A DNA stretch of 32,000 nt from Acidothermus cellulolyticus 11B (GCF_000015025.1 NC_008578.1:750001-782000); one strand, 5' to 3'. Shown: positions 8,597 to 29,200, counted from the first letter of the stretch. Made by a program: numbers and translations. Notes: generated by a model from the sequence alone, not told the origin.

Positions 8597-8700
8597 CCGG
8601 CCCAGCCTGCGGCGACCGTTGGGGGAGTGCCGGGCCAGCTTGCGGTGGCCGTCGGGAAGTGCCGTGGACGTCGGGGAGTGCCGTTCCTGCCTGCGGCGGC
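8597..8700. repeat. Imperfect tandem repeat of about 32 bp (two full units plus partial units) filling the gatC-gatA spacer
   Basis: Unit 1 (8597-8629) is CCGGCCCAGCCTGCGGCGACCGTTGGGGGAGTG. Unit 2 (8630-8661) is CCGGGCCAGCTTGCGGTGGCCGTCGGGAAGTG. Truncated units follow: CCGTGGACGTCGGGGAGTG, then CCGTTCCTGCCTGCGGCGGCG. Confidence 0.65.
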
Positions 8701-8718
8701 GTTCCAGCGAGGACGGCG

Positions 8719-10236
8719 ATGAGTGACCTGATTCGGCGGACCGCGGTCGAGCTCGCAGCGATGATCGCCGCCCGCGAGGTGTCAGCGGAGGAGGTCACCC
8801 GGGCGCACCTGGACCGTATCGCCGCGGTTGATCCCGCCGTGCACGCGTTTCTCTACGTCGATGCCGATGGCGCGCTGACCGCCGCCCGGGCGGTTGACGC
8901 CAGACTGGCGGCGGGGGAGAGACTCGGACCACTCGCCGGCGTCCCCCTTGCGCTCAAGGATGTGTTCACGACGCGCGGCATGCCGACCACCTGCGGCTCG
9001 AAGATTCTCGAAGGGTGGATCCCGCCATACGACGCGACGGTGGTGCAAAAAATCCGGGACGCCGGAATCGTCATTCTCGGCAAGACGAACATGGACGAAT
9101 TCGCGATGGGGTCGTCGACGGAGAATTCCGCATTCGGCCCCACCCGCAATCCTTGGGATTTGTCGCGTATTCCCGGCGGCTCATCCGGCGGCAGCGCGGC
9201 CGCGGTCGCGGCGTTCGAGGCGCCGCTGGCCATCGGTACTGACACGGGAGGGTCGATTCGGCAGCCGGCGGCCGTGACGGGCATTGTCGGCACCAAACCC
9301 ACGTACGGCGGCGTGTCGCGGTACGGCCTGGTCGCTTTCTCGTCGTCCCTCGACCAAGCGGGTCCGTTCGCCCGCACCGTGTTGGATGCCGCGTATCTGC
9401 ATGCCGCCATTGCGGGCCACGATCCGCGTGACGCCACGTCGATCGACGCTCCGGTGCCGGACGTCGTCGCCGCTGCCCGCAACGGGGACGTTCGCGGGTT
9501 GCGGATCGGGGTGGTGCGCGAATTGGACGGTGACGGATATGACCCCGGCGTCCGGCACCAATTCCATCAGGCGGTGAAGCTCCTCGCCGATCTCGGCGCC
9601 GACGTCGGTGAAGTGAGTTGCCCGCATTTCGAGTACGCCCTCGCCGCCTATTACCTCATCGCGCCCAGCGAGTGTTCGTCCAACCTCGCGCGATTCGACG
9701 CGATGCGGTACGGTTTGCGGCTCGGTGACGACGGCACCCGCACCGCGGAAGACGTCATGGCGCTCACCCGCGCGGCCGGCTTCGGCGCCGAGGTGAAACG
9801 CCGCATCATGCTGGGCACGTACGCGCTTTCCAGCGGTTACTACGAGGCCTATTACGGGTCGGCCCAGAAGGTCCGCACCCTCATCATCCAGGACTTCGCC
9901 GCCGCGTTCGAGAAATTCGACGTCCTCATCTCTCCGACCACCCCGACCACGGCTTTCCCGCTTGGCGAACGGGTGGACGACCCGCTGAAGATGTACCTGG
10001 CCGACCTCGACACGATTCCCGTGAATCTCGCCGGCAACGCCGCCATGTCCGTACCGATCGGCTGCTCGCCGGACGACGGCCTCCCGGTCGGCCTTCAGAT
10101 CATGGCACCGGTGTTGGCGGATGACCGGCTGTACCGGGTCGGTGCGGCGCTGGAAGCGGCGTACCGGGAACGCACCGGCCGGCTGCTCATTGAGGACGTA
10201 CCGGATCCTGCCGCGAATCAGGAGGGAGCCGCGTGA
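8719..10236 (+). CDS. gatA: Asp/Glu-tRNA amidotransferase subunit A
   Basis: 505 aa from ATG 8719 (GAGGA 5 nt upstream). Amidase signature [13 protein letters not shown]...[13 protein letters not shown]. The track start at 8659 would translate the repeat array. Confidence 0.95.
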
Positions 10237-11750
10237 CGACGATCGCTCCGGATGAGGTGCTGGATTTTGCCGAGGCGGTCGAGGAATTCGAACCGGTCTT
10301 CGGGCTGGAGACGCACGTCGAGCTGGCCACCCGGTCGAAGATGTTCTGCGGATGCCCGACCACGTTCGGCGCCGAGCCGAACACGCAGGTCTGCCCGGTC
10401 TGCCTCGGCCTGCCCGGCTCGCTTCCGGTCGCCAATCGGGCCGCCGTCGAGGCGACGATCCGTATCGGCCTTGCCCTGAACTGCACGATCGCCTCCTGGT
10501 GCCGGTTCGCCCGGAAGAACTACTTCTATCCCGACATGCCGAAGAACTTTCAGATTTCCCAGTACGACGAGCCGCTCTGCACCGACGGGTACCTGGACGT
10601 TGAGGTCGACGACCAGGTGTTCCGGATCGGGATCGAACGCGTCCACCTGGAGGAAGACACCGGAAAATCCGTGCACATCGGCGGCGCGACCGGTCGTATT
10701 CACGGCGCCGACTATTCGCTCGTCGATTACAACCGCGCGGGCATCCCCCTCGTCGAGATTGTCACGAAGCCCGTGGTCGGCACCGGGCAACTCGCTCCGG
10801 CGGTGGCCCGGGCGTACGTGACCGAACTGCGGGAAGTGATGCGGACACTGGGTGTCTCCGACGTGCGGATGGAGCAAGGCTCGTTGCGCTGCGACGTCAA
10901 TCTTTCCGTGCACCGCAAGGGTACGACGGCGTGGGGGACTCGCAGCGAAACGAAGAACGTCAACTCGCTCCGCTCGGTGGAGCGGGCGGTGCGCTACGAA
11001 ATTCAACGGCAGGCCGCTGTGCTGCGCGCCGGCGGCCGGGTGGTGCAGGAGACGCGCCATTTTCACGAGGATTCGGGTGTCACGACACCCGGGCGCAGCA
11101 AGGAACAGGCCGAGGATTATCGCTATTTTCCGGAGCCGGATTTGGTTCCGCTCGCCCCGGATCCGCAGTGGGTGGCAAGCCTGCGGGCCGCCCTTCCGGA
11201 ATTGCCGCTGCAGCGCCGCCGGCGGTTGCGCGAGGCGTGGGGTCTCACCGCGGCGGAGATGCAGGCGGCGCTGAATGCGGGCGCCGTCGAGTTGGTTGCG
11301 GCGACGGTTGCGGCGGGCGCGAGTCCCCGCGACGCGTACAAGTGGTGGCTGGGTGAACTCGCCCGGCGCGCCAATGAAGCCGGCGTCGAGCTGGCCGCAC
11401 TGCCCATAACCCCCGAGGACGTAGCCGAGCTCGCCCGGCTGGTGAGCACCGGACGGCTCACCGACAAGCTGGCCCGGGCGGTGCTCGACGGCGTTCTTGC
11501 CGGCGAGGGACGCCCGGAAGAGATCGTCGCCTCCCGCGGCCTTGAAGTCGTCTCGGATGACAGCGCTCTTCGCACCGCCGTGGACGCTGCGATCGCCGCA
11601 CAACCGGATGTCGCGGAGAAAATCCGTAACGGCAAGGTAGCCGCGGTCGGTGTCCTTGTCGGCGCGGTGATGAAGGCGACACACGGACGGGCCGACGCGG
11701 CGAAGGTGCGGGCTCTCATTCTGGAAACTCTTGGTGTCAGCGACGCATGA
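10233..11750 (+). CDS. gatB: Asp/Glu-tRNA amidotransferase subunit B
   Basis: 505 aa. The GTG start overlaps the gatA stop (GTGA). Motif [20 protein letters not shown]...[13 protein letters not shown]. Confidence 0.95.
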
Positions 11751-11798
11751 GGCAATGGGTGCCTTGACGTTGACGGCTGTCGGGCAGCGCCACCGGCA

Positions 11799-12725
11799 AT
11801 GAGCGAGGCCGAGGTCCACGTCTGGGTGCCCTACCCGGAAATGGCGGCGGATCTGCGCGGTCTGTCAGCGCGGCTGCGGGTCGGCCTTTTCACCGGAACA
11901 GAGAGTCCCGCCGACGTGCCGGAGCCGCACATTCTCGTGGCGCCGTACACCCTCGGCACGAAAAAACTTGCGGCGGCGCTGCGGTCACCCCGGCTGCGGG
12001 TCATCCAGCTTCTGACCGCCGGTTACGAGCAGGTGGCGCCGCTGGTTCCCGACGGTGTCCTCCTCTGCAACGCGCGCGGCGTCCATGACGCGAGCACGGC
12101 GGAACTCGCCGTCGCGTTGATGCTGGCCGCGCTGCGCGGAATTCCCGATTTCGTTCGAGCGCAGCAAACCGGAGAGTGGCGGCATGCCACGTATCCCTCG
12201 CTGGCGGACCGCACCGTGTTGATCCTCGGTTACGGATCCATCGGCGAGGCGTTGGAGCGCCGTCTCGCCGGCTTCGAGGTACGCATCCTGCGGGTCGCCC
12301 GGCGGCCCCGCCCCGGAGTCCACGGCATCGAGGAGGTCTGGGGTTTGCTCGGCGAAGCGGACGTGGTCGTCGTCCTCACCCCACTGACCGCCGAGACCAG
12401 GCATCTCGTTGACGAGAAATTCCTGGCGCGGATGCGGCCTGGTGCGCTGCTGGTCAACGTCGCTCGCGGGGCGGTGGTGGACACCGAGGCGCTGGTGCAT
12501 GCTGTTGCGGCAGGACGCATTCGCGCCGCCCTCGACGTGACAGATCCCGAGCCGCTCCCGCCGGACCATCCCCTCTGGCGGCTCCCCGGGGTGCTGATTT
12601 CGCCGCACGTCGGCGGGGACACCACCGCGTTTCTCCCGCGCGCCCGGCAACTCATCGTCGACCAGATTTCGCGGTACCTGAACGGCGAACCGCTGCGTAA
12701 CGTTGTCGCCGGTGACACTGATTGA
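11799..12725 (+). CDS. D-isomer-specific 2-hydroxyacid dehydrogenase family protein
   Basis: 308 aa. NAD-binding LILGYGSIGEALERRL and the catalytic region NVARG...ALDVTDPEP...SPHVGG. Confidence 0.85.
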   Translation: MSEAEVHVWVPYPEMAADLRGLSARLRVGLFTGTESPADVPEPHILVAPYTLGTKKLAAALRSPRLRVIQLLTAGYEQVAPLVPDGVLLCNARGVHDASTAELAVALMLAALRGIPDFVRAQQTGEWRHATYPSLADRTVLILGYGSIGEALERRLAGFEVRILRVARRPRPGVHGIEEVWGLLGEADVVVVLTPLTAETRHLVDEKFLARMRPGALLVNVARGAVVDTEALVHAVAAGRIRAALDVTDPEPLPPDHPLWRLPGVLISPHVGGDTTAFLPRARQLIVDQISRYLNGEPLRNVVAGDTD

Positions 12726-12794
12726 GCGGTGATGTCGCACGCCTGAGCCGGGCGTCGGCCGCCCGTGTGCGCAGCAGGGAACACCTCCATCACT

Positions 12795-12833
12795 GGGACT
12801 TTCGTCCCGAGTGAAGTCCGTGACGCTCGGGAC
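12795..12833 (+). promoter_or_regulatory. Two mutually exclusive hairpins in the por leader region
   Basis: GGGAC-TTTC-GTCCC (12795-12808) shares its 3' arm with GTCCCGAG-N14-CTCGGGAC (12804-12833). Both stems are perfect. Confidence 0.3.
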
Positions 12834-12969
12834 CTACGGCTCTGGGCGCTGGAGATCGGCGAACCGGAGACTGATGGTGTCAACAGGCGGCGATGGATCG
12901 TCGACGAGGCCGTGTCGGCGCCGTCTGTTCAGGCGCAGCCGATCGTGTGCGGCGGGAGGCGAAGATGGC

Positions 12970-13554
12970 ATGTGGCAGATTCGGGTGCACGGTAGGGGCG
13001 GACAAGGCGTCGTCACCGCGGCTGAGCTGCTCGCCGATGCAGCCTTTCGCGACGGATACGAGGTACAGGCTTTTCCCAGTTTCGGTTCCGAGCGGATGGG
13101 CGCCCCGGTAACGGCGTACTGTCGCTTGGACACACTGCCGATCCGTATCCGAGAGCCTGTCGTTGACGCCGATGCTCTTCTTGTCATTGACGCATCGTTG
13201 TTGCGTCTGCCGGAGACGCTCGCGGGGTTGAGGACGGGCGGGTGGGTTCTCGTGAATTCCGCTCGACCTCCGCAGCAGCTCGGCGTGACATCCACGGCGT
13301 CCTCCGACGTACACATTCGTTGGGCGACGGTGCCGGCGACGGCGCTGGCCCGACGCTATCTGGGACGTGCGGTGCCCAACGCGCCAATGCTCGGCGCTTT
13401 TGCAGCACTTACCCGACTGGTCTCGTTGACGGCAATTGAGGACGCACTGTCGGATCGCTTCACGGCCCCTATCGCTGAGCAGAATATCCAGGCGGCCCGT
13501 GCAGCCTTTGCTTCTCTTCAGCAGGTGGTGACGAGCGATGCGCAGTCAGCGTGA
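12970..13554 (+). CDS. porG: 2-oxoacid:ferredoxin oxidoreductase, gamma subunit
   Basis: 194 aa from ATG 12970, with GGGAGG at 12954-12959. Motifs IRVHGRGGQGVVTAAELLADAA and FPSFGSERMGAPV. Many A/T-ending codons. Confidence 0.85.
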   Translation: MWQIRVHGRGGQGVVTAAELLADAAFRDGYEVQAFPSFGSERMGAPVTAYCRLDTLPIRIREPVVDADALLVIDASLLRLPETLAGLRTGGWVLVNSARPPQQLGVTSTASSDVHIRWATVPATALARRYLGRAVPNAPMLGAFAALTRLVSLTAIEDALSDRFTAPIAEQNIQAARAAFASLQQVVTSDAQSA

Positions 13555-14728
13555 AGCCTCCCGGGCCATAGCCGAGGTGGTCGGTCGATGCCGTCCGCAG
13601 GTCGTTCCCGCTTATCCGATCACTCCGCAGACCCACATCGTGGAAGCACTCGGCGCCATGATCCGGGCCGGCACCCTTTCGCCGTGCGTCTTTCTTACCG
13701 TCGAATCAGAATTCGCGGCGATGTCAGCGGCGATCGGTGCCTCGTTCGCCGGATCCCGCACATACACCGCGACTGCCAGTCAAGGGCTTCTGTACATGGC
13801 TGAAGCGCTGTTCAACGCGTCCGGTTTAGGGGCACCGATCGTCATGACGGTCGCCAATCGCGCGGTCGGTGCGCCGATCAACATTTGGAACGATCAGAGC
13901 GATGCGATGAGCCTGCGGGATTGCGGCTGGATCCAGCTCTACGCCCCGGACAATCAAGCTGCGGTCGACCTGCATGTTCTGGCGTTCCGCGTCGCGGAGG
14001 CTCTCTCACTTCCGGTCATGGTGTGCATGGACGGTTTCGTCCTCACCCACGCCTTCGAACCATTGGCTGTTCCGACACAAGCCCAGGTCGACAATTTTCT
14101 TCCTCCCTTTCGGCCGCGGCAGGTTCTCGATCCCGGCGATCCGGTGACCATCGGTGCCATGGTCGGCCCGGAGGCCTTCACCGAGGTGAAGTATCTCTCG
14201 GCGCAGCGGCTCGACGCGGCGGTGAACGTGTTCGAGTGGTTCGCACAGGAATACGCCGAGATAACCGGCCGCCGTTATCACGCGGTGGAAAGCTACCGCA
14301 TCGAACACGCGGACACGGTTGTTGTCGCCCTTGGTTCGGCGGCGGGAACGTTGTACGAGCTTGCAGACGCAGTCCCTGGTGTCGGGGTTCTTGTCATCAC
14401 GATGTATCGCCCATTTCCGGCGCGGGTCGTCCGGGGACTTCTCGCCGCAGCCCGACGCGTCATCGTGCTCGAACGCGCCTTTGCACCGGGAGCCGGCGGC
14501 ATCGTCACCGCCGATGTGCGTGCCGCGGTCGCCGGAACGAGCGCGATGGTGCATACCGTCATTGGGGGACTGGGTGGACGTCCGATCCGGCTGGCCTCGT
14601 TGCGCGCCGTGGTAACCGCCGATGCGCTTCCGGATATTCATTTCCTCGATCTACGCGAGGACGTCGTTCGCCGTGAATGGGAGCGGGATCCCACGGTCTC
14701 GGCGATGGAGGTGCGCCATGTCCGCTGA
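13538..14728 (+). CDS. porA: 2-oxoacid:ferredoxin oxidoreductase, alpha subunit
   Basis: 396 aa, overlapping porG by 17 nt. Motifs AYPITPQT, ESEFAAMSAAIGASFAG and TATASQGLLYM. Confidence 0.9.
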   Translation: MRSQREASRAIAEVVGRCRPQVVPAYPITPQTHIVEALGAMIRAGTLSPCVFLTVESEFAAMSAAIGASFAGSRTYTATASQGLLYMAEALFNASGLGAPIVMTVANRAVGAPINIWNDQSDAMSLRDCGWIQLYAPDNQAAVDLHVLAFRVAEALSLPVMVCMDGFVLTHAFEPLAVPTQAQVDNFLPPFRPRQVLDPGDPVTIGAMVGPEAFTEVKYLSAQRLDAAVNVFEWFAQEYAEITGRRYHAVESYRIEHADTVVVALGSAAGTLYELADAVPGVGVLVITMYRPFPARVVRGLLAAARRVIVLERAFAPGAGGIVTADVRAAVAGTSAMVHTVIGGLGGRPIRLASLRAVVTADALPDIHFLDLREDVVRREWERDPTVSAMEVRHVR

Positions 14729-15701
14729 CAACGGACGGTCCCTTTCGCTGACAACCCGCACGGCTGGCGGCAGACTGGTTCCCCCCGCGCGGCGTGCGGA
14801 ACAGGCTAATCCACACCGACGCAACGCACTGACCTCGGGTCACCGCGCCTGCCAGGGATGCGGAGTTGCTCTCGCTGCTCGTACCGTCGTTGATGCTGCG
14901 TACCGCGCCTCCGGGGGAAAACTCGTTGTCGTGACAGCAACCGGATGTCTTGAGGTGTTCTCAACACCCTATCCGGAGAGCGCGTGGCGGGTTCCTTGGT
15001 TGCACTCGTTGTTCGCTAATGCGGCATCGGTGGCAAGCGGTGTGGCGGCCGCGCTGTACGCCCAGGGACGGGAGGACGTTCGAGTCCTTGCGCAGGGCGG
15101 GGACGGAGCGACCGTCGACATCGGCCTCGCCTGCCTCTCCGGCATGTTCGAACGAGGCGATGACGTCCTGTATGTGTGTTACGACAACGAGGCGTATATG
15201 AATACCGGCATTCAGCGCTCGGGTGCGACACCGCCATATGCGCGGACCGCAACAACGGAAGCGGTCGGAGACGAGCCGGGAAATCCGCCTGGGACGGGAA
15301 AGGACTTGCCGCGTATCGCGCTCGCGCACAGCATTCCCTACGTAGCGACGGCGACCATAGGCGATATTCACGACCTTGAGGCCAAAGTGGTGAACGCGAT
15401 GGGTGTGCGTGGAGCCCGATACCTGCACGTCCTGACACCCTGTCCCCTTGGTTGGGGGAGCGGACCTGCTGAGACGATCGCATTGGCCCGCCTTGCCCAG
15501 CGTTCCGGTTTGTTCCCGGTTTTCGAAGCACGGGACGGGGAAATCACCTCGGTGCTTCCGATTCGGCGGCCGGTTCCGGTCGAGGAGTACCTCCGGCCGC
15601 AACGCCGATTCGCCCATCTGTTCGCCGATCCGGACCGTCGCCTGCTCACCAGGTTGCAGGAATTCGCCGACAGCACGAAGGCGCGGTACGGCTTGATGTG
15701 A
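14718..15701 (+). CDS. porB: 2-oxoacid:ferredoxin oxidoreductase, beta (TPP and [4Fe-4S]) subunit
   Basis: 327 aa from ATG 14718, overlapping the porA stop. Cys motif GHRACQGCG...ATGC and TPP motif GGDGATVDIG...YDNEAYMNTG. Confidence 0.9.
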   Translation: MSADNGRSLSLTTRTAGGRLVPPARRAEQANPHRRNALTSGHRACQGCGVALAARTVVDAAYRASGGKLVVVTATGCLEVFSTPYPESAWRVPWLHSLFANAASVASGVAAALYAQGREDVRVLAQGGDGATVDIGLACLSGMFERGDDVLYVCYDNEAYMNTGIQRSGATPPYARTATTEAVGDEPGNPPGTGKDLPRIALAHSIPYVATATIGDIHDLEAKVVNAMGVRGARYLHVLTPCPLGWGSGPAETIALARLAQRSGLFPVFEARDGEITSVLPIRRPVPVEEYLRPQRRFAHLFADPDRRLLTRLQEFADSTKARYGLM

Positions 15702-15710
15702 AGGGGGTGC

Positions 15711-17345
15711 GTGATGGATTTACCGTTCGCGGTGAGTCTTGCACCGGCTTCGAGCAGATCGAACCACACGGGTACGTGGCGCACCGATCGACCCGTCTAT
15801 ATCGATGCCTGGCCGCCGTGTAATGCGGCATGTCCCGCTGGTGAATCCGTCCAGGGGTGGCTTTACCACGCCGCAGCAGGCGATTGGGAGATCGCCTGGC
15901 GCCAGCTTGTCGCAGTGAATCCGTTTCCGGCCGTCATGGGACGGGTCTGCTATCACCCGTGCGAGGCGCGGTGCAATCGCCGGGAATTCGATGAGGCCGT
16001 CGCCATCAATGCGGTCGAACAATTCCTTGGAGATGAGGCGCTGCGCCGTGGTTGGCGCCTGCCGTCACCCGGTGCACCGACAGGTCATCGTGTGCTGATC
16101 GTCGGTGCCGGGCCGGCAGGTCTTGCTGCGGCGTATCACCTGCGGTTGCTCGGACATGAGGTGGAGCTTCACGACGCCGAAGCCGAGCCCGGTGGGATGA
16201 TGCGCTACGCCATCCCGACGTTCCGGCTCTCCCGTCGAGTCCTCGACGCAGAAATTGAACGCGTCCTCGAGTTGGGAATTCACTACCATCCGCGGTCACG
16301 GATTTCCGACCTCAGCGCCGTCAGCGGATATGACGCCATATTCGTAGCCGTCGGTGCTCAGCGTCCGCATCGGGTCCAACTCCCCGCCGATCCTGCGGCG
16401 CGGATTCTCGACGCGTTGGACCTGCTCCGGCGTACCGCGCAAGGCGAACGGCCGGGATTAGGGCGGCGGGTCGCCGTCTACGGCGGCGGCAATACCGCGA
16501 TGGACGCTGCGCGCACCGCGAAACGCCTCGGCGCTGACGAGGTGGTCGTCGTGTACCGACGCACCCGGGAGCGCATGCCCGCTCACGACACAGAGGTGGC
16601 CGAGGCCGTCGAGGAAGGGGTGGCTTTCGAGTGGTTGTCGACGGTGACCCACGTGGAGCCGGGAAGCCTTCGCCTGGAACGAATGGAGCTCGACGCAGCC
16701 GGGAAACCTCGACCAACCGGGCGGTTTGTCGCGCGTCCGGCGGACACTCTGATCCTCGCCTTGGGACAGGAGGTGGACGCCGGGCTGCTGCGTGCGTTGC
16801 CGGGCGTGCGTTGTGCCGACGGCGGCGTGGCGGTGGACGCGTCCCTCATGACCGGAGCGGCCGGCGTCTTTGCCGGCGGGGACATGATTCCTGGTGAACG
16901 CACCGTCACTGCCGCGATCGGTCACGGGCGACGGGCCGCGCTCTCCATCGACGCGTGGCTCCGGGGGCGGCAACCGCCGTCCGAACCGCTTCGGGAATCG
17001 GCCGCTTTCGCGTCACTGAACACGTGGTACTACGACGAATCACCCGCGGCACAGCGCAACCGCCTGCCACGAGCCCGCCGGCTCGGGGGGTTTGGCGAGG
17101 TGGTTCGCGGACTTGACCCGGCACACGCGTTGGCCGAGGCCCGACGATGCTTCTCCTGCGGCAATTGCTTCCAGTGCGACAACTGCTACGCCGTCTGCCC
17201 CGACGCGGCGGTTCTCAAGGTCGAGTCCGGGCACGGCTATGCGATCGACCTCGATTACTGCAAGGGATGCGGGTTATGCGTCGCCGAGTGTCCGGTGGGT
17301 GCCATTCGCACGGTGCCCGAACCGGGCACCGAGGTCGATGCATGA
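15711..17345 (+). CDS. Fusion protein: PorD-like N-terminal arm, GltD/NfnB-like NAD(P)H-FAD oxidoreductase and a C-terminal 2x[4Fe-4S] ferredoxin domain
   Basis: 544 aa from GTG 15711 (ATG 15714 is 6 nt after AAGGGGG). Motifs: HTGTWRTDRPV (PorD arm); PPCNAACPAGE and GRVCYHPCEARCNR (GltD-type Fe-S domain); VLIVGAGPAGLAAAYHL; GGMMRYAIPTFRL; VAVYGGGNTAMDAARTAKRLGA; VFAGGDM; C-terminal CFSCGNCFQCDNCYAVCP and DYCKGCGLCVAECP. Confidence 0.85.
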   Translation: MMDLPFAVSLAPASSRSNHTGTWRTDRPVYIDAWPPCNAACPAGESVQGWLYHAAAGDWEIAWRQLVAVNPFPAVMGRVCYHPCEARCNRREFDEAVAINAVEQFLGDEALRRGWRLPSPGAPTGHRVLIVGAGPAGLAAAYHLRLLGHEVELHDAEAEPGGMMRYAIPTFRLSRRVLDAEIERVLELGIHYHPRSRISDLSAVSGYDAIFVAVGAQRPHRVQLPADPAARILDALDLLRRTAQGERPGLGRRVAVYGGGNTAMDAARTAKRLGADEVVVVYRRTRERMPAHDTEVAEAVEEGVAFEWLSTVTHVEPGSLRLERMELDAAGKPRPTGRFVARPADTLILALGQEVDAGLLRALPGVRCADGGVAVDASLMTGAAGVFAGGDMIPGERTVTAAIGHGRRAALSIDAWLRGRQPPSEPLRESAAFASLNTWYYDESPAAQRNRLPRARRLGGFGEVVRGLDPAHALAEARRCFSCGNCFQCDNCYAVCPDAAVLKVESGHGYAIDLDYCKGCGLCVAECPVGAIRTVPEPGTEVDA

Positions 17346-17383
17346 CGGGTAGCGACGGAATCACGCCGGAGGCCGCCGCACGG

Positions 17384-17402
17384 TGCGCGCCCCATGCGCG
17401 CA
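17384..17402 (+). terminator. Candidate stem-loop downstream of the por operon (no T tract)
   Basis: TGCGCGC-CCCAT-GCGCGCA, a 7-bp perfect stem 39 nt after the stop of the fusion gene. Confidence 0.3.
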
Positions 17403-17411
17403 ACAGGACCG

Positions 17412-17462
17412 TTGAACGGGGCGTCGCTGCGTAACGTTGTGACTGGGGACGACGCCGGGTAG
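17412..17462 (+). pseudogene. Ghost 3' end of a 2-hydroxyacid dehydrogenase gene (last 16 codons plus stop)
   Basis: 17412-17462 translates to LNGASLRNVVTGDDAG*, compared with LNGEPLRNVVAGDTD* at the end of the intact gene. In an ungapped alignment, 17413-17452 matches 12679-12718 at 30 of 40 nt, including a perfect 16-mer CGCTGCGTAACGTTGT. Similarity is lost upstream of 17412. Confidence 0.5.
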
Positions 17463-17490
17463 GTCGGCTGTCCCCTCGGGCCCGGCACGG

Positions 17491-19455
17491 ATGGGAGAGC
17501 GCGTGTCCAGGGCAGCGACGGAATTCGGCGAATTCGCCGCGAGCTTCGCGGATCCGCTGTTCCGGCTCGGCTATCTCCTGGTGTGCGCGGAACCGACCCC
17601 GTCGCTGCCTGACGTGACCCTCGCCCGGACGGTGACCGTCCGGGCGCTGCTCGCTACCCGCCGGCATTGGCGTGACGTGGCGTCCGGCGCCGCGCCGGAG
17701 AGCCTGGCCGTGGCGGCGTTGTTCCGAGCAGTATCCCGACCCCGCCGTACCCCGTCTGCCAGTCGATCGGCGGCTGGCGCCCAGCCCGCCGTCCGTGCCG
17801 GCGACCGGCTGCACGCCGTCGGTGTCAGCGACCCCCGGGCGGGTCTCGGGGCGCCGGTGGCGGCGCCGTCCGACGACGACGCCGAGCTGCGACGCGCACT
17901 CGATGCCATGTGGTGCTCGCTGTCACCGGCGGCACGCGCCGTCTTCCTCGCCGAGCACGGCGTCTCCCTCTTCCATTGGATGGCCGACCTCGACCTTCCC
18001 GACGTCTTCGGCCACCGGCGGCGGGCGAAGCACTCCGCCGAATGGCAGGCCGCCTGGACCGGCCTCCTGCGCCAGGCGGGCACGCGGGGCGGTGCGGACG
18101 TCGACCAGCTCCTCCGTGCTGTCCTGGCCGAGCGGGCGGCCTGGCCCCCAACGCCGCCGGGCGTCGTGCCGGAGGTCGAGCAGCGGCAACGGGTCCGCGT
18201 CCGATGGACCGCCGCGGTCGGTGCGACGCTCGTCCTGGCACTGGTCGCCGGCGGTCTTGCCTTCGCCCGCCCGCAGACCGCCACACAGCGCGCCGGTCAG
18301 CACCATCCAACGGCTGCGCCGGCCTCTGCCGGTCCCATCGTCAACTGGCCGGTCCGCGGCAACGCGGCCGCCGTCGACCTCGTCGTCCAGCTGCGGGCGC
18401 AATTCGCCCGGGACCATCCGGACGCCTATGGGCCGGTGCAGGTTCTCCTGGTCGCGGACGTTCCGTGGTTCCGCCTCGCCTATGTGGTCGCGAGAACGGC
18501 AAGCGGTGTCGTCAACGCGTGGTACTACGGGCCGGCCGGCTCCCAAGACCTCCAGCAAGGCTATGTCTCCTACGGTCAGCCGCTCGCGGCGCCCGAGGGT
18601 TCCCCGTCCCCGACGGCTCCCGAGGGTTCCCCGTCCGCGACGGCTCCCGCTGTGGTCGCTGCAGCGCTTGCGGATCCGAGCGGCCATGTCGCTCTCGTCG
18701 CCCTGACCGCCCCCCAGCTCCTCAGCGGGGAGCTCCGCACCGGCACCACTACGCTGCCGACGCGGCTGGCCGCGTCCGACGGCGCGATCGTGGCGGACAT
18801 CAGTGCGGTGTACGCGCCAGGGGAGACGCTCCGGCTCATTGCCGGCGGCCGGACGGTCTGGGAGGGCCCGCTCGCCCTCTTGCAGCTGGCGGCCCGCCCC
18901 ACCGCCTCGGCACTGGCCCGGTTCCCCGGCGGTCAGGGAGCGGAACTCATCCCCGTCCAGCGGGGCACCGCCAACACCCCCGAACTCTTCCGTGCCCTGC
19001 AGATCCTGGACGCCTGGCGGCGCACCGGGGAGCTGGCGTCGTCCGCCGAGCCCACTGTGCTCTGGGGCGGGGCTGACGGCGAAGGCACCCAGCTCCTCAT
19101 CCTGCGGGCCAAAACCCTGCACCGGCCGGACCTGCTCATCGTCGTCTGGGGAGCGGCCCCGGAGGCGGCCGGGGAGTATCTCCTGCGCCCGGACCTCCCC
19201 GACTATCCGCTGGCGTTCAGCTATCTCGGGGCCGGCGGCAACCGGATCGGCGTCCTCACTCCCCTGGGGGTGACCAGTGTGGGCTTGTACGTCCGGGGGG
19301 CTGTGCGCATGACCGCCCCGGTGGATGCGACCGGCTTTGCCACGCTGCCCGCGGTGGTCGAACCGACCAGCCTTGGCGACGGGTACGCCTCGCTGATCCT
19401 GTACGACGCCCAGGGCAAGGACGTCGGTCGGGTCGCGGTTCCACCGCCGGTGTGA
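17491..19455 (+). CDS. Hypothetical single-pass membrane protein with a degenerate ECF-sigma-like N-terminal region
   Basis: 654 aa with an ATG start. GC3 is about 83% by hand count over the first 60 codons, consistent with this frame being the coding one. The antisense 551-aa ORF is Arg/Gly-rich shadow. One TM segment (WTAAVGATLVLALVAGGLAFA). The N-terminus (FGEFAASFADPLFRLGYLL...RRHWRDV, then LSPAARAVFLAEH) loosely follows a sigma region-2 / region-4 pattern. Confidence 0.7.
   Translation: MGERVSRAATEFGEFAASFADPLFRLGYLLVCAEPTPSLPDVTLARTVTVRALLATRRHWRDVASGAAPESLAVAALFRAVSRPRRTPSASRSAAGAQPAVRAGDRLHAVGVSDPRAGLGAPVAAPSDDDAELRRALDAMWCSLSPAARAVFLAEHGVSLFHWMADLDLPDVFGHRRRAKHSAEWQAAWTGLLRQAGTRGGADVDQLLRAVLAERAAWPPTPPGVVPEVEQRQRVRVRWTAAVGATLVLALVAGGLAFARPQTATQRAGQHHPTAAPASAGPIVNWPVRGNAAAVDLVVQLRAQFARDHPDAYGPVQVLLVADVPWFRLAYVVARTASGVVNAWYYGPAGSQDLQQGYVSYGQPLAAPEGSPSPTAPEGSPSATAPAVVAAALADPSGHVALVALTAPQLLSGELRTGTTTLPTRLAASDGAIVADISAVYAPGETLRLIAGGRTVWEGPLALLQLAARPTASALARFPGGQGAELIPVQRGTANTPELFRALQILDAWRRTGELASSAEPTVLWGGADGEGTQLLILRAKTLHRPDLLIVVWGAAPEAAGEYLLRPDLPDYPLAFSYLGAGGNRIGVLTPLGVTSVGLYVRGAVRMTAPVDATGFATLPAVVEPTSLGDGYASLILYDAQGKDVGRVAVPPPV
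18592..18645 (+). repeat. In-frame 27-bp tandem duplication inside the 654-aa CDS
   Basis: CCCGAGGGTTCCCCGTCCCCGACGGCT and CCCGAGGGTTCCCCGTCCGCGACGGCT match at 26 of 27 positions. They encode PEGSPSPTA and PEGSPSATA. Confidence 0.85.
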
Positions 19456-19536
19456 CGGTCCGGTCGGGTGAGCCCGGACGCAATCGAGCCGTCCGCCGCG
19501 GCGGTTCGGCCGCCGGTGCGACGGTCCCGTTGGGTG
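19435..19536. repeat. 36-nt direct repeat at 66-bp spacing that re-copies the 3' end and stop of the 654-aa CDS
   Basis: 19435-19470 (GCGGTTCCACCGCCGGTGTGACGGTCCGGTCGGGTG) and 19501-19536 (GCGGTTCGGCCGCCGGTGCGACGGTCCCGTTGGGTG) match at 31 of 36 positions. TGA is CGA in the second copy. Confidence 0.6.
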
Positions 19537-19567
19537 CAGACGAGTTCTTGGCGCGTAAAGTGTGTCG

Positions 19568-19597
19568 CGCGCCGACACGTGCCGCGCCGACCCGTGC
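19568..19597. repeat. 15-bp tandem repeat x2 upstream of ilvD
   Basis: CGCGCCGACACGTGC and CGCGCCGACCCGTGC match at 14 of 15 positions. Confidence 0.7.
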
Positions 19598-19633
19598 CGG
19601 ACGACGAATGACGGAGCAAGGGAAGAGGAATCG

Positions 19634-21310
19634 ATGCGCGCTCAGCCCGATCTCAAACCGCGCAGCCGTGACGTCACCGATGGGCTGGAGCGGGCCGCGG
19701 CCCGCGGCATGCTCCGCGCCGTCGGAATGACCGATGCGGACTGGGAGAAACCCCAGATCGGAGTGGCGAGTTCCTGGAACGAGATAACGCCCTGCAACCT
19801 CTCCCTCGACCGGCTCGCGCAGGCGGCCAAGGAGGGCGTGCACGCCGCCGGCGGGTATCCGCTGGAGTTCGCCACCATCTCGGTTTCCGACGGCATCTCC
19901 ATGGGCCATGAGGGAATGCATTTCTCGCTGATTTCCCGCGAAGTCATCGCCGATTCCGTCGAAACCGTCTTCATGGCTGAGCGCTTCGACGGCGCCGTCC
20001 TGCTTGCCGGTTGCGACAAGTCCGAACCCGGCATGCTGATGGCGGCCGCCCGGCTTGACCTGGCAGCGGTTTTCCTCTATGCCGGCAGCACGTTGCCGGG
20101 GAAACTCGGGGACCGGGACATCAACATCGTCGATGCGTTCGAGGCTGTCGGCGGTTGCCTTCGCGGCCTGGTGAGCCGGGAAGAGGTCGACGCCATCGAA
20201 CGGAATTTCTGTCCGGTCGAAGGGGCCTGCGCGGGCATGTTCACCGCCAACACGATGGCCAGCGCGGCGGAAGCGCTCGGCATGTCATTGCCCGGTTCGG
20301 CCTCGCCGCCCGCGCCGGACCGCCGGCGCGACGGTTTCGCCCGGGCCTCCGGGGAGGCAGTCGTCAACCTGCTCCGCCGCGGCATCACCGCCCGGGACAT
20401 CATGACCCGGGAGGCATTCGAGAACGCGATCGCTGTCGTGATGGCCCTGGGCGGCTCCACCAACGCCGTGCTCCATCTGCTCGCGATCGCCCGCGAGGCG
20501 AACGTCGACCTCGCCATCGACGATTTCAACCGGATCGGGGACCGGGTCCCGCACTTGGCGGATGTCAAGCCGTTCGGCCGGTACGTGATGAGTGACGTCG
20601 ACCGGGTCGGCGGCGTGCCCGTGGTGATGAAAGCGCTGCTGGACGCCGGGCTGCTGCACGGCGACTGCCTGACGGTGACCGGCAAGACGGTGGCGGAGAA
20701 CCTCGCGGACATCACCCCGCCGGACCCCGACGGCAAGGTGATTCACGCGCTCACCCAACCGATCCACCGCACCGGCGGGCTGGCCATTCTCCGCGGTTCG
20801 CTCGCCCCGGACGGCGCGGTGGTGAAGACCGCCGGGCTGGAGTCGACGTTCTTCGAAGGCACCGCCCGGGTGTTCGACGGCGAGGAGGCGGCCATGCGCG
20901 CCGTGCCCGAGCTGCGTCCGGGAGATGTCGTTGTCATCCGGTACGAGGGGCCGAAAGGCGGCCCAGGGATGCGGGAGATGCTCGCGGTCACCGGCGCCAT
21001 CAAGGGCGCGGGCCTCGGCAAGGATGTGCTCCTCGTCACCGACGGCCGGTTCTCCGGCGGTACCACGGGTTTCTGTGTCGCTCACGTTGCTCCGGAGGCG
21101 GTGGACGGGGGACCGATCGCGTTCGTCCGGGACGGTGACCGCATCCGGCTGGACGCGCAGGCCCGTACCCTCGACCTGCTGGTGGACGCCGATGAGCTGG
21201 CCAAACGACGGGCCGACTGGCAACCGCCGCCGCCGCGGTACACCACCGGAGTCGCGGCCAAGTACGTCAAGCTGGTTGGCAGCGCCTCCGAGGGTGCGAT
21301 CTGTCGGTGA
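19634..21310 (+). CDS. ilvD: Dihydroxy-acid dehydratase
   Basis: 558 aa from ATG 19634 (GGAAGAGGAA upstream). Motifs [26 protein letters not shown] and [14 protein letters not shown]. Confidence 0.95.
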
Positions 21311-21389: not shown

Positions 21390-21431
21390 GTGCGTTTTAT
21401 CGCGCTCGTACTCCGTGGGCGCGCTGGCTGA
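21390..21431 (+). CDS. Candidate ilvB leader peptide fM-R-F-I-A-L-V-L-R-G-R-A-G
   Basis: A 13-codon ORF (GTG 21390 to TGA 21429-21431) with consecutive Ile-Ala-Leu-Val-Leu codons, lying 22 nt upstream of a terminator hairpin and 88 nt upstream of ilvB. No Shine-Dalgarno sequence is visible, which fits leaderless translation. Confidence 0.55.
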   Translation: MRFIALVLRGRAG

Positions 21432-21453: not shown

Positions 21454-21484
21454 CCCCTCCGTGCTGCGGCACGAGGGGTTTTTT
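21454..21484 (+). terminator. Intrinsic terminator / attenuator in the ilvB leader
   Basis: CCCCTC(C)GTGC-TGCG-GCACGAGGGG followed by TTTTTT (21479-21484), 35 nt before the ilvB ATG. Confidence 0.75.
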
Positions 21485-21518
21485 GTTACTCCGCAAGCAG
21501 CTGTCGAGAGAGGTAGCG

Positions 21519-27843: not shown

Positions 27844-28929
27844 ATGACCATCGAATTCACCCGTGAGCTCAATCCGAACCCGGTGCCGGACGGCGAACGA
27901 GCCCGGTTGCTCGCGGATCCCGGTTTCGGGCGGGTTTTCACCGACCACATGGTGACCATTACCTGGACCGCGGACCGCGGCTGGCATGACGCCCGGCTCC
28001 GGCCGTACGCGCCGCTTGCCCTCGACCCGGCGACCGCGGTTTTCCATTACGGACAGGCCATCTTCGAGGGTTTCAAGGCCTACGCCCAGCCGGACGGCAG
28101 CATCAAGACCTTCCGGCCCGACGCCAACGCCCGCCGCTTCCAGAAATCCGCGCAGCGGATGGCCTTGCCCGAGCTGCCGGTGGACGACTTCGTCGCCGCG
28201 ACCGACCTGCTGATCAGCACCGACCGGGCGTGGGTGCCCCGGGACGGGGAGAAGTCGCTGTACGTCCGGCCGTTCATGATGGCGACGGAAGTCTTCCTCG
28301 GGGTCCGTCCAGCCACGCACGTCACCTTCGCGGTCATCGCCTCACCGGCGGCCAGCTACTTCAGCGGCGGACTGCACCCGGTCTCGATCTGGCTCTCCGA
28401 GGAGTACACCCGCGCTGCTCCCGGCGGCACAGGGGCGGCGAAGTGCTCGGGCAATTACGCGGCCAGCCTCATCGCCCAGCAGCAGGCGCTGGCGCACGGT
28501 TGCGAACAGGTGGTCTTTCTGGACGCCGTCGAGCGCCGGTGGGTGGAGGAGCTCGGCGGCATGAACATTTACTTCGTCTTCGACGACGGCACCCTCGTCA
28601 CCCCGCCGACGTCCGGGACGATTCTCGAAGGGGTTACCCGGGACGCCCTGCTGACGTTGGCCCGGGAGCGCGGGCACGCGGTCGACGTTCGGCCCATCGA
28701 CATTCAGCAGTGGCGGGACGGCGTGGCAAGCGGGCGCATCACCGAAGTCTTCGCGTGCGGCACCGCCGCGGTGATCACTGCGATCGGCCGGCTGGTCTGG
28801 CAGGGCGGTGAATTGACCATTGGTGACGGCGGCATCGGCAAGGTCGCCCAGGAGCTGCGTGACGCACTGCTCGCCATCCAGTACGGGCGGACGCCGGACA
28901 CCCACGGCTGGATGCACCTGGTCTGCTAG
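27844..28929 (+). CDS. ilvE: Branched-chain amino acid aminotransferase
   Basis: 361 aa from ATG 27844 (AAGGACGGAG upstream). Class IV aminotransferase pattern FTDHMVTITW...HYGQAIFEGFKAY...GTGAAKCSGNYAASL. Confidence 0.95.
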   Translation: MTIEFTRELNPNPVPDGERARLLADPGFGRVFTDHMVTITWTADRGWHDARLRPYAPLALDPATAVFHYGQAIFEGFKAYAQPDGSIKTFRPDANARRFQKSAQRMALPELPVDDFVAATDLLISTDRAWVPRDGEKSLYVRPFMMATEVFLGVRPATHVTFAVIASPAASYFSGGLHPVSIWLSEEYTRAAPGGTGAAKCSGNYAASLIAQQQALAHGCEQVVFLDAVERRWVEELGGMNIYFVFDDGTLVTPPTSGTILEGVTRDALLTLARERGHAVDVRPIDIQQWRDGVASGRITEVFACGTAAVITAIGRLVWQGGELTIGDGGIGKVAQELRDALLAIQYGRTPDTHGWMHLVC

Positions 28930-29071
28930 CGGCCCGCCCGGGGTGCGGCGCACCGCCCGATGCCAGCTCACGGCCACCCGACCTGCTAGCGGCCCGCCCA
29001 GGGGTGTGGCGCACCGCACGATGCCAGCTCACGGCCACCCGACCTGCTAGCGGCCCGCCCAGGGGTGTGGC
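28923..29071. repeat. 60/61-bp tandem repeat, about 2.5 copies, starting inside the last two codons of ilvE
   Basis: The unit is CTGCTAGCGGCCCGCCC(A)GGGGTG(C/T)GGCGCACCGC(C/A)CGATGCCAGCTCACGGCCACCCGAC. Copies start at 28923, 28983 and 29044, and the third breaks off at 29071. Each unit end (CACGGCCACCCGACCTGCTAG) resembles the ilvE terminus (CACGGCTGGATGCACCTGGTCTGCTAG). Confidence 0.85.
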
Positions 29072-29139: not shown

Positions 29140-29165
29140 CCTCTCGCGATCGCGAGGGGTTTTTT
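29140..29165 (+). terminator. Intrinsic terminator / attenuator upstream of cimA
   Basis: CCTCTCGC-GATC-GCGAGGGG followed by TTTTTT (29160-29165), 35 nt before the cimA ATG. The 3' half CGAGGGGTTTTTTGTTA is identical to the ilvB attenuator. Confidence 0.75.
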
Positions 29166-29200
29166 GTTATGGCGACACGGCGGACACCGAGGAGAAGACC

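Follow-up and report, generated by a model that had tools for sequence, protein, structure and literature searches.

Integrative elements aimed at gene 3' ends supply a replacement end upon integration, so that the gene into which they insert is kept intact. The cis-mobilizable elements (CIMEs) are decayed elements, 1.2-13 kb in size and lodged at the 3' ends of genes, which keep their attachment (att) sites and are without recombination or transfer genes; in streptococci, integrative elements and CIMEs occupy the 3' ends of fda, rpmG, rpsI and rplL (PMC7563491). Stranded gene ends are also found in the displacement arrays of Rhs and type VI secretion system (T6SS) loci, in which a new 3' end together with the genes downstream of it displaces the old end, and the latter survives further downstream as an 'orphan' (PMC5361080; PMC3240628). 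Such arrays have been attributed to homology-facilitated illegitimate recombination (HFIR) (PMC5361080). Here we describe a comparable arrangement in a 32-kb stretch of the genome of Acidothermus cellulolyticus 11B (NC_008578.1:750001-782000; hereafter the window, from whose first letter all coordinates are counted). A 4.7-kb operon, comprising porG, porA, porB and a gene for a fusion of a GltD-like flavoprotein with a PorD domain (the por operon), lies in the last codons of a gene for a D-2-hydroxyacid dehydrogenase, and is followed by a gene for a 654-aa protein; all of these are on the plus strand. The insert is flanked by imperfect direct copies of the last codons of the dehydrogenase, of which the left copy is coding and the right copy is a non-coding relic, here termed the ghost.

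The locus is a clean textbook case, in that a single intact metabolic operon sits within a highly conserved housekeeping block (ligA-gatCAB ... ilvD-ilvBNC-serA-leuB-ilvE-leuA), the two junctions can still be read and there is an empty site to compare with. By this event, which followed the divergence of a sister Acidothermus lineage, an aerobic, thermophilic, cellulolytic actinobacterium gained an anaerobe-type 2-oxoacid oxidoreductase coupled to an NAD(P)H flavoprotein, a gain that bears on the central metabolism of the organism. None of the papers searched discusses this locus. It is a small, fixed, horizontally acquired islet of an ordinary kind and reveals no new mechanism.

The empty site and the age of the insertion

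A scan of one genome per species recovered 80 dehydrogenase loci. In the nearest other genome, that of Acidothermus sp. MAG HOT.MAX.052 (L001; dehydrogenase 77%, GatA 87% and GatB 88% identical), gatA, gatB, the dehydrogenase gene and the 654-aa gene are contiguous and no por genes are present, the 654-aa gene starting 58 nt after the dehydrogenase stop. In all 80 related loci por genes are absent from the neighbourhood of the dehydrogenase, and the order gatAB ... dehydrogenase ... (654-aa homologue) ... ilvD is common across Actinomycetota. The proposal of the first-pass annotation, made from the window alone, that the por cluster is an insertion is thus borne out by the relatives. In a three-way alignment, the agreement of L001 with the left junction ends at ...CGTAACGT.GT, and its agreement with the right junction begins at TGAACGG... 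and continues into the 654-aa gene; the repeated segment is the overlap of the two L001 matches, which yields the classical picture of an insertion alongside its empty site. The intergenic region of L001 has no significant likeness to the non-coding flanks of either junction and cannot place the breakpoints. Contigs from metagenome runs that encode a 96% identical dehydrogenase carry the insertion, with both repeat copies identical to those of the window; this relative is too close for its unchanged copies to be informative on the repeats. Since the insertion is present in the 96% relative and not in L001, the event predates the former split and postdates the latter. Hence, the lineage of A. 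cellulolyticus gained the four-gene operon after its separation from the lineage of MAG HOT.MAX.052.

The 654-aa protein is only 49% identical to its L001 counterpart directly 3' of the dehydrogenase, and three related loci (L002, L006 and L011) each encode two homologues of it in tandem. In three other Actinomycetota (L004, L046 and L053) a gene for a BNR/Asp-box (Sortilin-Vps10-like) protein of about 370 aa lies 3' of the dehydrogenase, immediately so in L046 and at a distance of some 1.3-1.9 kb in L004 and L053. Over the 80 loci, between 0 and 9 kb separate this gene from ilvD.

The ghost as a relic of a dehydrogenase C-terminus

The direct repeat pairs 12679-12716 with 17413-17450, with 30 of 38 nt identical (79%) at a spacing of 4734 nt, and contains an exact 16-nt core, CGCTGCGTAACGTTGT, in both copies (Table 1). 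The first-pass annotation had correctly reported the 30 shared nucleotides, the perfect 16-mer and the in-frame peptides ending in a stop; the alignment is of 38 rather than 40 nt and the left copy starts at 12678 rather than 12679. Its caution that a single 16-mer match carries little weight was well placed: the window has 10 exact direct-repeat pairs of at least 16 nt, where a second-order Markov model expects about one, and taken alone the 16-mer is not significant.

Three independent tests agree in showing that the match as a whole is not due to chance. Firstly, local alignment of the 145-nt spacer holding the ghost against the dehydrogenase gene gave a score of 36, as against a maximum of 32 in 500 shuffles. 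Secondly, a like search in the 79 other dehydrogenase loci gave scores of at most 33, both downstream of the gene and in upstream controls. Thirdly, we built a motif profile (xxG[EQ]PLxNVV) from 50 non-redundant C-termini of the family, all from other genomes. Against this profile the true C-terminus scores 29.4 bits and the ghost 16.6 bits, the second best value in the window, with the next best at 7.6 bits (55,482 six-frame positions). The exact P of the ghost match is 4.5e-7 per position, corresponding to 0.025 expected matches per window and 6e-5 for the spacer. As this profile derives from other genomes, the ghost resembles dehydrogenase C-termini in general and not one copy only, which meets a reservation raised when the repeat was first noticed. 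The ghost is a real relic of the C-terminus of the dehydrogenase family, and 17412-17462 is not to be annotated as a gene. The 66-nt spacer that precedes it (17346-17411) has no likeness to the dehydrogenase gene 5' of the LNG codons.

A second match to the C-terminal motif, a weaker candidate, was seen in Haloactinopolyspora alba (L080, 10882-10923), where DAGNSMVNVVNRQ followed by a stop scores 17.1 bits on the same strand about 130 nt 3' of the real C-terminus. Its nucleotide likeness to the real end is weak, and it could be either another stranded gene end or a chance match.

Composition of the insert

The four genes of the insert have a G+C content at third codon positions (GC3) of 0.675 (porG), 0.71 (porA), 0.683 (porB) and 0.724 (fusion gene), about 0.14 below the host. 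Ten neighbouring genes have values of 0.80-0.88 (mean 0.837, sd 0.028; Mann-Whitney p = 0.001 for por versus neighbours). This confirms the earlier description of the por genes as compositionally foreign (0.68-0.72 against 0.80-0.88), and the GC3 values estimated at that stage by hand over 60 codons agree with our sliding windows. In relatives in which the context of the operon is conserved, its GC3 is 0.85-0.91, equal to that of the flanks; hence, low GC3 is not an intrinsic property of por genes. The tetranucleotide profile, suggested at the same time as a check, identifies the por region as the most deviant 4.5-kb stretch of the window, yet with a z of only 2.0.

To delimit the deviant segment we used a maximum-likelihood change-point search on third positions from gatA to leuB, allowing one such segment and taking 2-lnL support intervals. 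The two-change-point model (log-likelihood ratio 64) places the left boundary at 12689 (support 12494-12719), within the left repeat, and the right boundary at 16463 (support 16373-17183). Nine-codon windows with a GC3 as low as that of the last codons of the left copy make up 1.4% of those in host genes and 9.4% of those in por genes. The first-pass annotation had contrasted A/T-ending codons in the left copy with G/C-ending codons in the right one; this contrast holds only after the 16-mer (A/T-ending codons, 3 of 6 in the left copy and 1 of 7 in the right). Codons cgt, gtt and act occur in the right copy as well, and two of the five codons cited in its support lie in the shared core.

Within the fusion gene GC3 rises from 0.66 over the first 250 codons to 0.78 over the remaining 294, a step of 0.12 that none of 48 relatives equals (mean 0.008, sd 0.03). 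We rejected the idea that this gene is a mosaic, as the two halves have their nearest relatives in common and are about equally identical to them; the step may be due to uneven amelioration, to a heterogeneous donor or to chance.

How the operon entered the locus

The account that we favour, and to which we give somewhat better than even credence, is that the operon was horizontally acquired and entered through one crossover within a short stretch resembling the dehydrogenase 3' end. The incoming DNA would have borne this look-alike, roughly LNGASLRNVVAGDTD with a stop, and a single reciprocal (Campbell-type) crossover would have taken place within the identical 16-nt core. The left copy would then consist of the host head and an imported tail, with the gene kept intact, whereas the right copy would consist of the imported head and the original tail of the host, stranded 28-40 nt 5' of the next gene. 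The product would now be a fixed islet resembling a decayed CIME, namely a cargo with att-like repeats and no recombinase or transfer gene left.

The evidence for this comes from dividing the repeat into three parts. In the head (12678-12690) the left copy is identical to L001 (13/13 nt), while the ghost matches L001, and also the left copy, at 8/13. In the core both copies match L001 at 14/16 and each other at 16/16. In the 16 nt after the core the left copy matches L001 and the ghost equally (7/16 each), and the ghost matches L001 at 10/16. Local alignment of the spacer with the L001 3' end runs through the tail, with 32/43 nt identical (74%, against about 72% for the whole gene), while the local alignment between the left copy and the ghost ends where the core ends. 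The ghost stop is 28-40 nt from the next gene, a distance that is 58 nt for the true dehydrogenase stop of L001. With respect to the next gene, the ghost thus sits in the position expected of the dehydrogenase end. The import of the left tail is favoured because the ghost aligns with L001 through the tail and is nearer to it after the core; the segment 12707-12725 is thus possibly imported, and the last six codons of the dehydrogenase may be foreign. A single crossover also agrees with the change point at 12689, and with the rarity in host genes of windows as rich in A or T at third positions as the last codons of the dehydrogenase. As the numbers are small, we rate the crossover step as favoured and not as shown. 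The same applies to the choice for the six-codon left tail between import, by a single crossover in an att-like core, and ancestry, by duplication of the target. Accordingly, the suggestion of the first-pass annotation that the island brought a replacement 3' end gains from the tail comparison and the change point, and is the favoured reading, short of proof. Long homologous replacement of the 3' part of the dehydrogenase was excluded, in that its last 70 residues are 90% identical to L001 (77% overall) and its GC3 is host-like up to the repeat.

Several observations weigh against a single crossover of imported DNA. The tail comparison involves 16-18 nt and is not significant alone. The right change point falls about 900 nt short of the structural right end, an early edge not expected of one imported block. 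No integrase or transposase is encoded among the genes of the insert or the large open reading frames (ORFs) of the 32-kb window, all of which could be assigned; this upholds what had been noticed at first reading, and means that the recombinase which marks an island, within or beside the element, is not seen. Nor is there an integrase among ten sampled genes 3' of the dehydrogenase in five other loci. Recurrent integration at this site finds no echo among the 79-80 other loci, where profile and nucleotide searches gave no ghost of similar strength save the weak L080 candidate. From the side of the cargo, por adjoins neither a dehydrogenase nor a fragment resembling one in any of 85 loci. Finally, the por proteins are about as similar to those of other Actinobacteria (up to 74%) as are the housekeeping proteins of the host, from which it follows that the donor was not phylogenetically remote.

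The import of the six-codon left tail is weakly supported, and duplication of host sequence therefore stays a live rival, possible though on balance rather unlikely. It holds that both copies are host DNA, a por fragment having been captured at a break in the last codons of the dehydrogenase by end-joining or a replication template switch that duplicated about 28-47 nt, after which the right copy decayed and the left was kept under selection. The two copies indeed share two synonymous states (ctg, gtt) against L001 (ctc, gtg), which makes them mutual closest relatives in the core; the best conserved part of the motif has changed in the ghost from EP to AS, as would be expected in a decaying copy; and the absence of a recombinase also speaks for this account. 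Yet this account predicts that the copies are mutual nearest relatives throughout, which is not so after the core, where the left copy is no nearer to the ghost than to L001 and the ghost is nearer to L001. The differences are moreover clustered (5/13, 0/16 and 9/16 along the repeat) rather than evenly spread, and duplications of tens of nucleotides are atypical of both transposition and end-joining. Transposition as such was excluded: there is no transposase, no terminal inverted repeats pair the ends and no short (2-14 bp) exact target duplication is present, the repeat of 28-47 nt being imperfect and unlike one.

Improbable in our view is homologous recombination or HFIR from a donor that carried por directly 3' of its own dehydrogenase orthologue, in which a linear fragment anchored in the dehydrogenase gene was joined illegitimately on the right, just 5' of the last codons of the recipient. 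Displacement of this type, leaving orphaned 3' regions stranded, has been proposed for T6SS effector and Rhs loci (PMC5361080), and the left tail (NVVAG...) agrees with the tail most often seen in the family. Against this, the dehydrogenase is host-like almost to its end, both in the identity of its last 70 residues to L001 and in its GC3 until about 12689, which limits a donor tract to about 36 nt or less; a donor tract in the anchor gene that grades into foreign DNA, the mark of HFIR, is not seen. The 85 por loci without an adjacent dehydrogenase likewise speak against such a donor, and a donor whose GC3 differed would have diverged too far to anchor efficiently by homology. That no insertion took place, with por ancestral at the site and lost elsewhere and the ghost a chance likeness, has only the slightest probability: chance alone would give about one such 16-mer repeat per window, and the por proteins are comparable to housekeeping ones in their identity to other Actinobacteria, but the many independent, precise losses required across 80 loci, the unexplained step in GC3 and the fit of the ghost to the family profile make ancestral presence with multiple losses untenable.

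Comparison with described islands

The por insert resembles a CIME in lying within the last codons of a protein-coding gene that stays intact and in being bounded on either side by imperfect direct repeats that share an identical core. Its 4.7-kb size is within the range of 'classical CIMEs', its cargo is purely metabolic and it has no recombination or transfer genes, so that it presents the att-type repeats and the gene losses by which CIMEs are recognized. It shares with islands in general an empty site in a relative, terminal direct repeats of which one completes the target gene, and a distinct codon composition. It differs from CIMEs in that no related integrase-bearing integrative and conjugative or mobilizable element is known for this site, be it here, in the 79 other loci or among the ten genes sampled in five of them, and its origin from a larger element is a matter of inference. 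Moreover, its host is a thermophilic actinobacterium and not a Firmicute as in the case of the streptococcal CIMEs, and as a single intact operon with non-coding ends of 244 and 66 nt it is unusually tidy for a decayed larger element. By this analogy the por insert is CIME-like, and at most a putative member of that class. The Rhs and T6SS arrays offer a parallel in their stranded 3' ends, yet the tract replaced here is at most about 12 codons, there is no donor gradient in the upstream gene, and a single event rather than an array is observed. It is conceivable, though we hold it to be quite improbable, that the dehydrogenase 3' end is the attachment site of an undescribed kind of actinobacterial cassette, a lone metabolic operon that has att-like ends but no recombinase of its own and depends for its movement on an integrase supplied in trans from another locus, with the widespread por operon as one of its cargoes.

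Origin and predicted function of the por operon

The gene order porG-porA-porB-GltD/PorD fusion recurs in 80 metagenome loci with a G+C content of 0.40-0.75 (L093-L172) and is conserved also in L081-L085. In a search of 5.8 billion proteins, the best PorA relative from another species reached 74% identity, and the top matches with names are from Actinobacteria (Jatrophihabitantaceae, Pseudonocardiales and Mycobacteriales). A scan of metagenomes for a closer por donor gave identities of at most 66-67%, and plasmids have por relatives of 37% identity or less only. All the closest relatives have a GC3 near 0.88, from which we conclude that the donor is not among them; probably it was a lower-GC3 actinobacterium. 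These relatives have the operon in the context Smr ... porGAB-fusion-SDR, with a short-chain dehydrogenase (SDR) gene 3' of the operon that has no counterpart in the window. Searches at the junctions for relics of the usual neighbours (SDR, Smr and Rv1265-like) gave chance-level matches only, as did nucleotide comparison of the spacers with the por flanks of relatives, and the 66-nt spacer contains no relic of the SDR gene.

Pfam and NCBIfam matches show that gamma, alpha and beta (thiamine pyrophosphate-binding) subunits are encoded together with a delta-type dicluster ferredoxin domain. This composition is that of the four-subunit pyruvate and 2-oxoisovalerate:ferredoxin oxidoreductases (PorABCD/VorABCD), but unlike the equivalogs of those families the PorA and PorB of the window score below the equivalog cut-offs, and we therefore keep the substrate at the general level of 2-oxoacids. 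Functionally, to the extent that the domains tell, there is a likeness to the NADH-dependent phenylglyoxylate dehydrogenase PadEFGHI, a 2-oxoacid oxidoreductase with an added NAD(P)H flavoprotein. The fusion protein is a strong match to NCBIfam NF009410 (702.6 bits, cut-off 516), with the PorD match at residues 480-537. Going by these domains, the cargo is likely to be an oxygen-tolerant 2-oxoacid oxidoreductase of the four-subunit type, in which the ferredoxin domain would be wired directly to an NAD(P)H-binding flavoprotein.

Gene order and other features of the window

The coordinates of the features discussed above are collected in Table 1. The start of porG agrees with that called in L086, the ORF of the fusion gene opens at GTG 15711, and the 654-aa gene may instead start at GTG 17503. 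An lpd-like gene, a TetR regulator and ligA lie 5' of the genes listed, and ilvD is followed by ilvB, ilvN, ilvC, serA, leuB, ilvE and leuA.

Table 1. Positions of the dehydrogenase gene, the por insert with its terminal repeats, and adjoining genes in the window
Feature	Coordinates	Strand	Remarks
gatA	8659-10236	+	
gatB	10233-11750	+	
D-isomer-specific 2-hydroxyacid dehydrogenase gene, 308 aa, intact; insertion target	11799-12725	+	Pfam 2-Hacid_dh_C 3e-51; GC3 0.80
Left copy (attL-like): last 15 codons of the dehydrogenase and stop, LNGEPLRNVVAGDTD	12678-12725	+	Coding, in frame with stop
16-nt core, left copy; proposed crossover region	12691-12706	+	
Non-coding spacer 5' of porG, 244 nt	12726-12969	+	
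porG, gamma subunit of 2-oxoacid:ferredoxin oxidoreductase, 194 aa	12970-13554	+	Pfam POR 4e-41; NCBIfam PorC_KorC 179.8 bits (cut-off 81)
porA, alpha subunit, 396 aa	13538-14728	+	Pfam POR_N and PFOR_II
porB, beta subunit, thiamine pyrophosphate-binding, 327 aa	14718-15701	+	Pfam TPP_enzyme_C; NCBIfam PorB 315 bits, below equivalog cut-off
Fusion gene, GltD/NfnB-like NAD(P)H flavoprotein with C-terminal PorD-type 2x[4Fe-4S] domain, 543 aa	15714-17345	+	Pfam Fer4_20, Pyr_redox_2, Fer4_7
Spacer from fusion gene stop to ghost, 66 nt; right end of island	17346-17411	+	
Ghost (attR-like): non-coding relic of dehydrogenase 3' end, LNGASLRNVVTGDDAG and stop	17412-17462	+	Core at 17425-17440
654-aa protein gene	17491-19455	+	GC3 0.85; host gene directly 3' of the dehydrogenase in the empty site
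ilvD	19562-21310	+	

The 244-nt spacer 5' of porG is 97% conserved in the 96% relative. It has no Rfam or consensus promoter match, and is unlike both the por-upstream regions of relatives and the L001 intergenic region; we presume it to be island DNA with the promoter of the operon. Across 11500-19600 an Rfam scan gave only a sub-threshold CRISPR-DR match, within the 654-aa gene, and scans of 12500-17700 for consensus promoters and terminators gave nothing at the junctions.

The 654-aa protein has no Pfam or NCBIfam match; it contains an in-frame 27-nt tandem repeat at 18587-18649 (APEGSPSPT/APEGSPSAT). The stop of its gene and the spacer before ilvD are spanned by a 36-nt direct repeat (19435-19470 versus 19501-19536; 86% identical, 66 nt apart). 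A further repeat, a 61-nt tandem unit in 2.5 copies (96% identical), extends at 28923-29071 from the stop of the ilvE-like aminotransferase gene into the leader region of leuA. Just 5' of ilvB and leuA a terminator-like 16-mer, CGAGGGGTTTTTTGTT, is found at 21472-21487 and 29153-29168, respectively, preceded in each case by a G+C-rich hairpin. A 13-codon ORF, VRFIALVLRGRAG with a stop (21390-21431), which is rich in codons for isoleucine, leucine and valine, also lies 5' of ilvB, and these features of the ilvB and leuA leaders look like those of leader-peptide attenuation.

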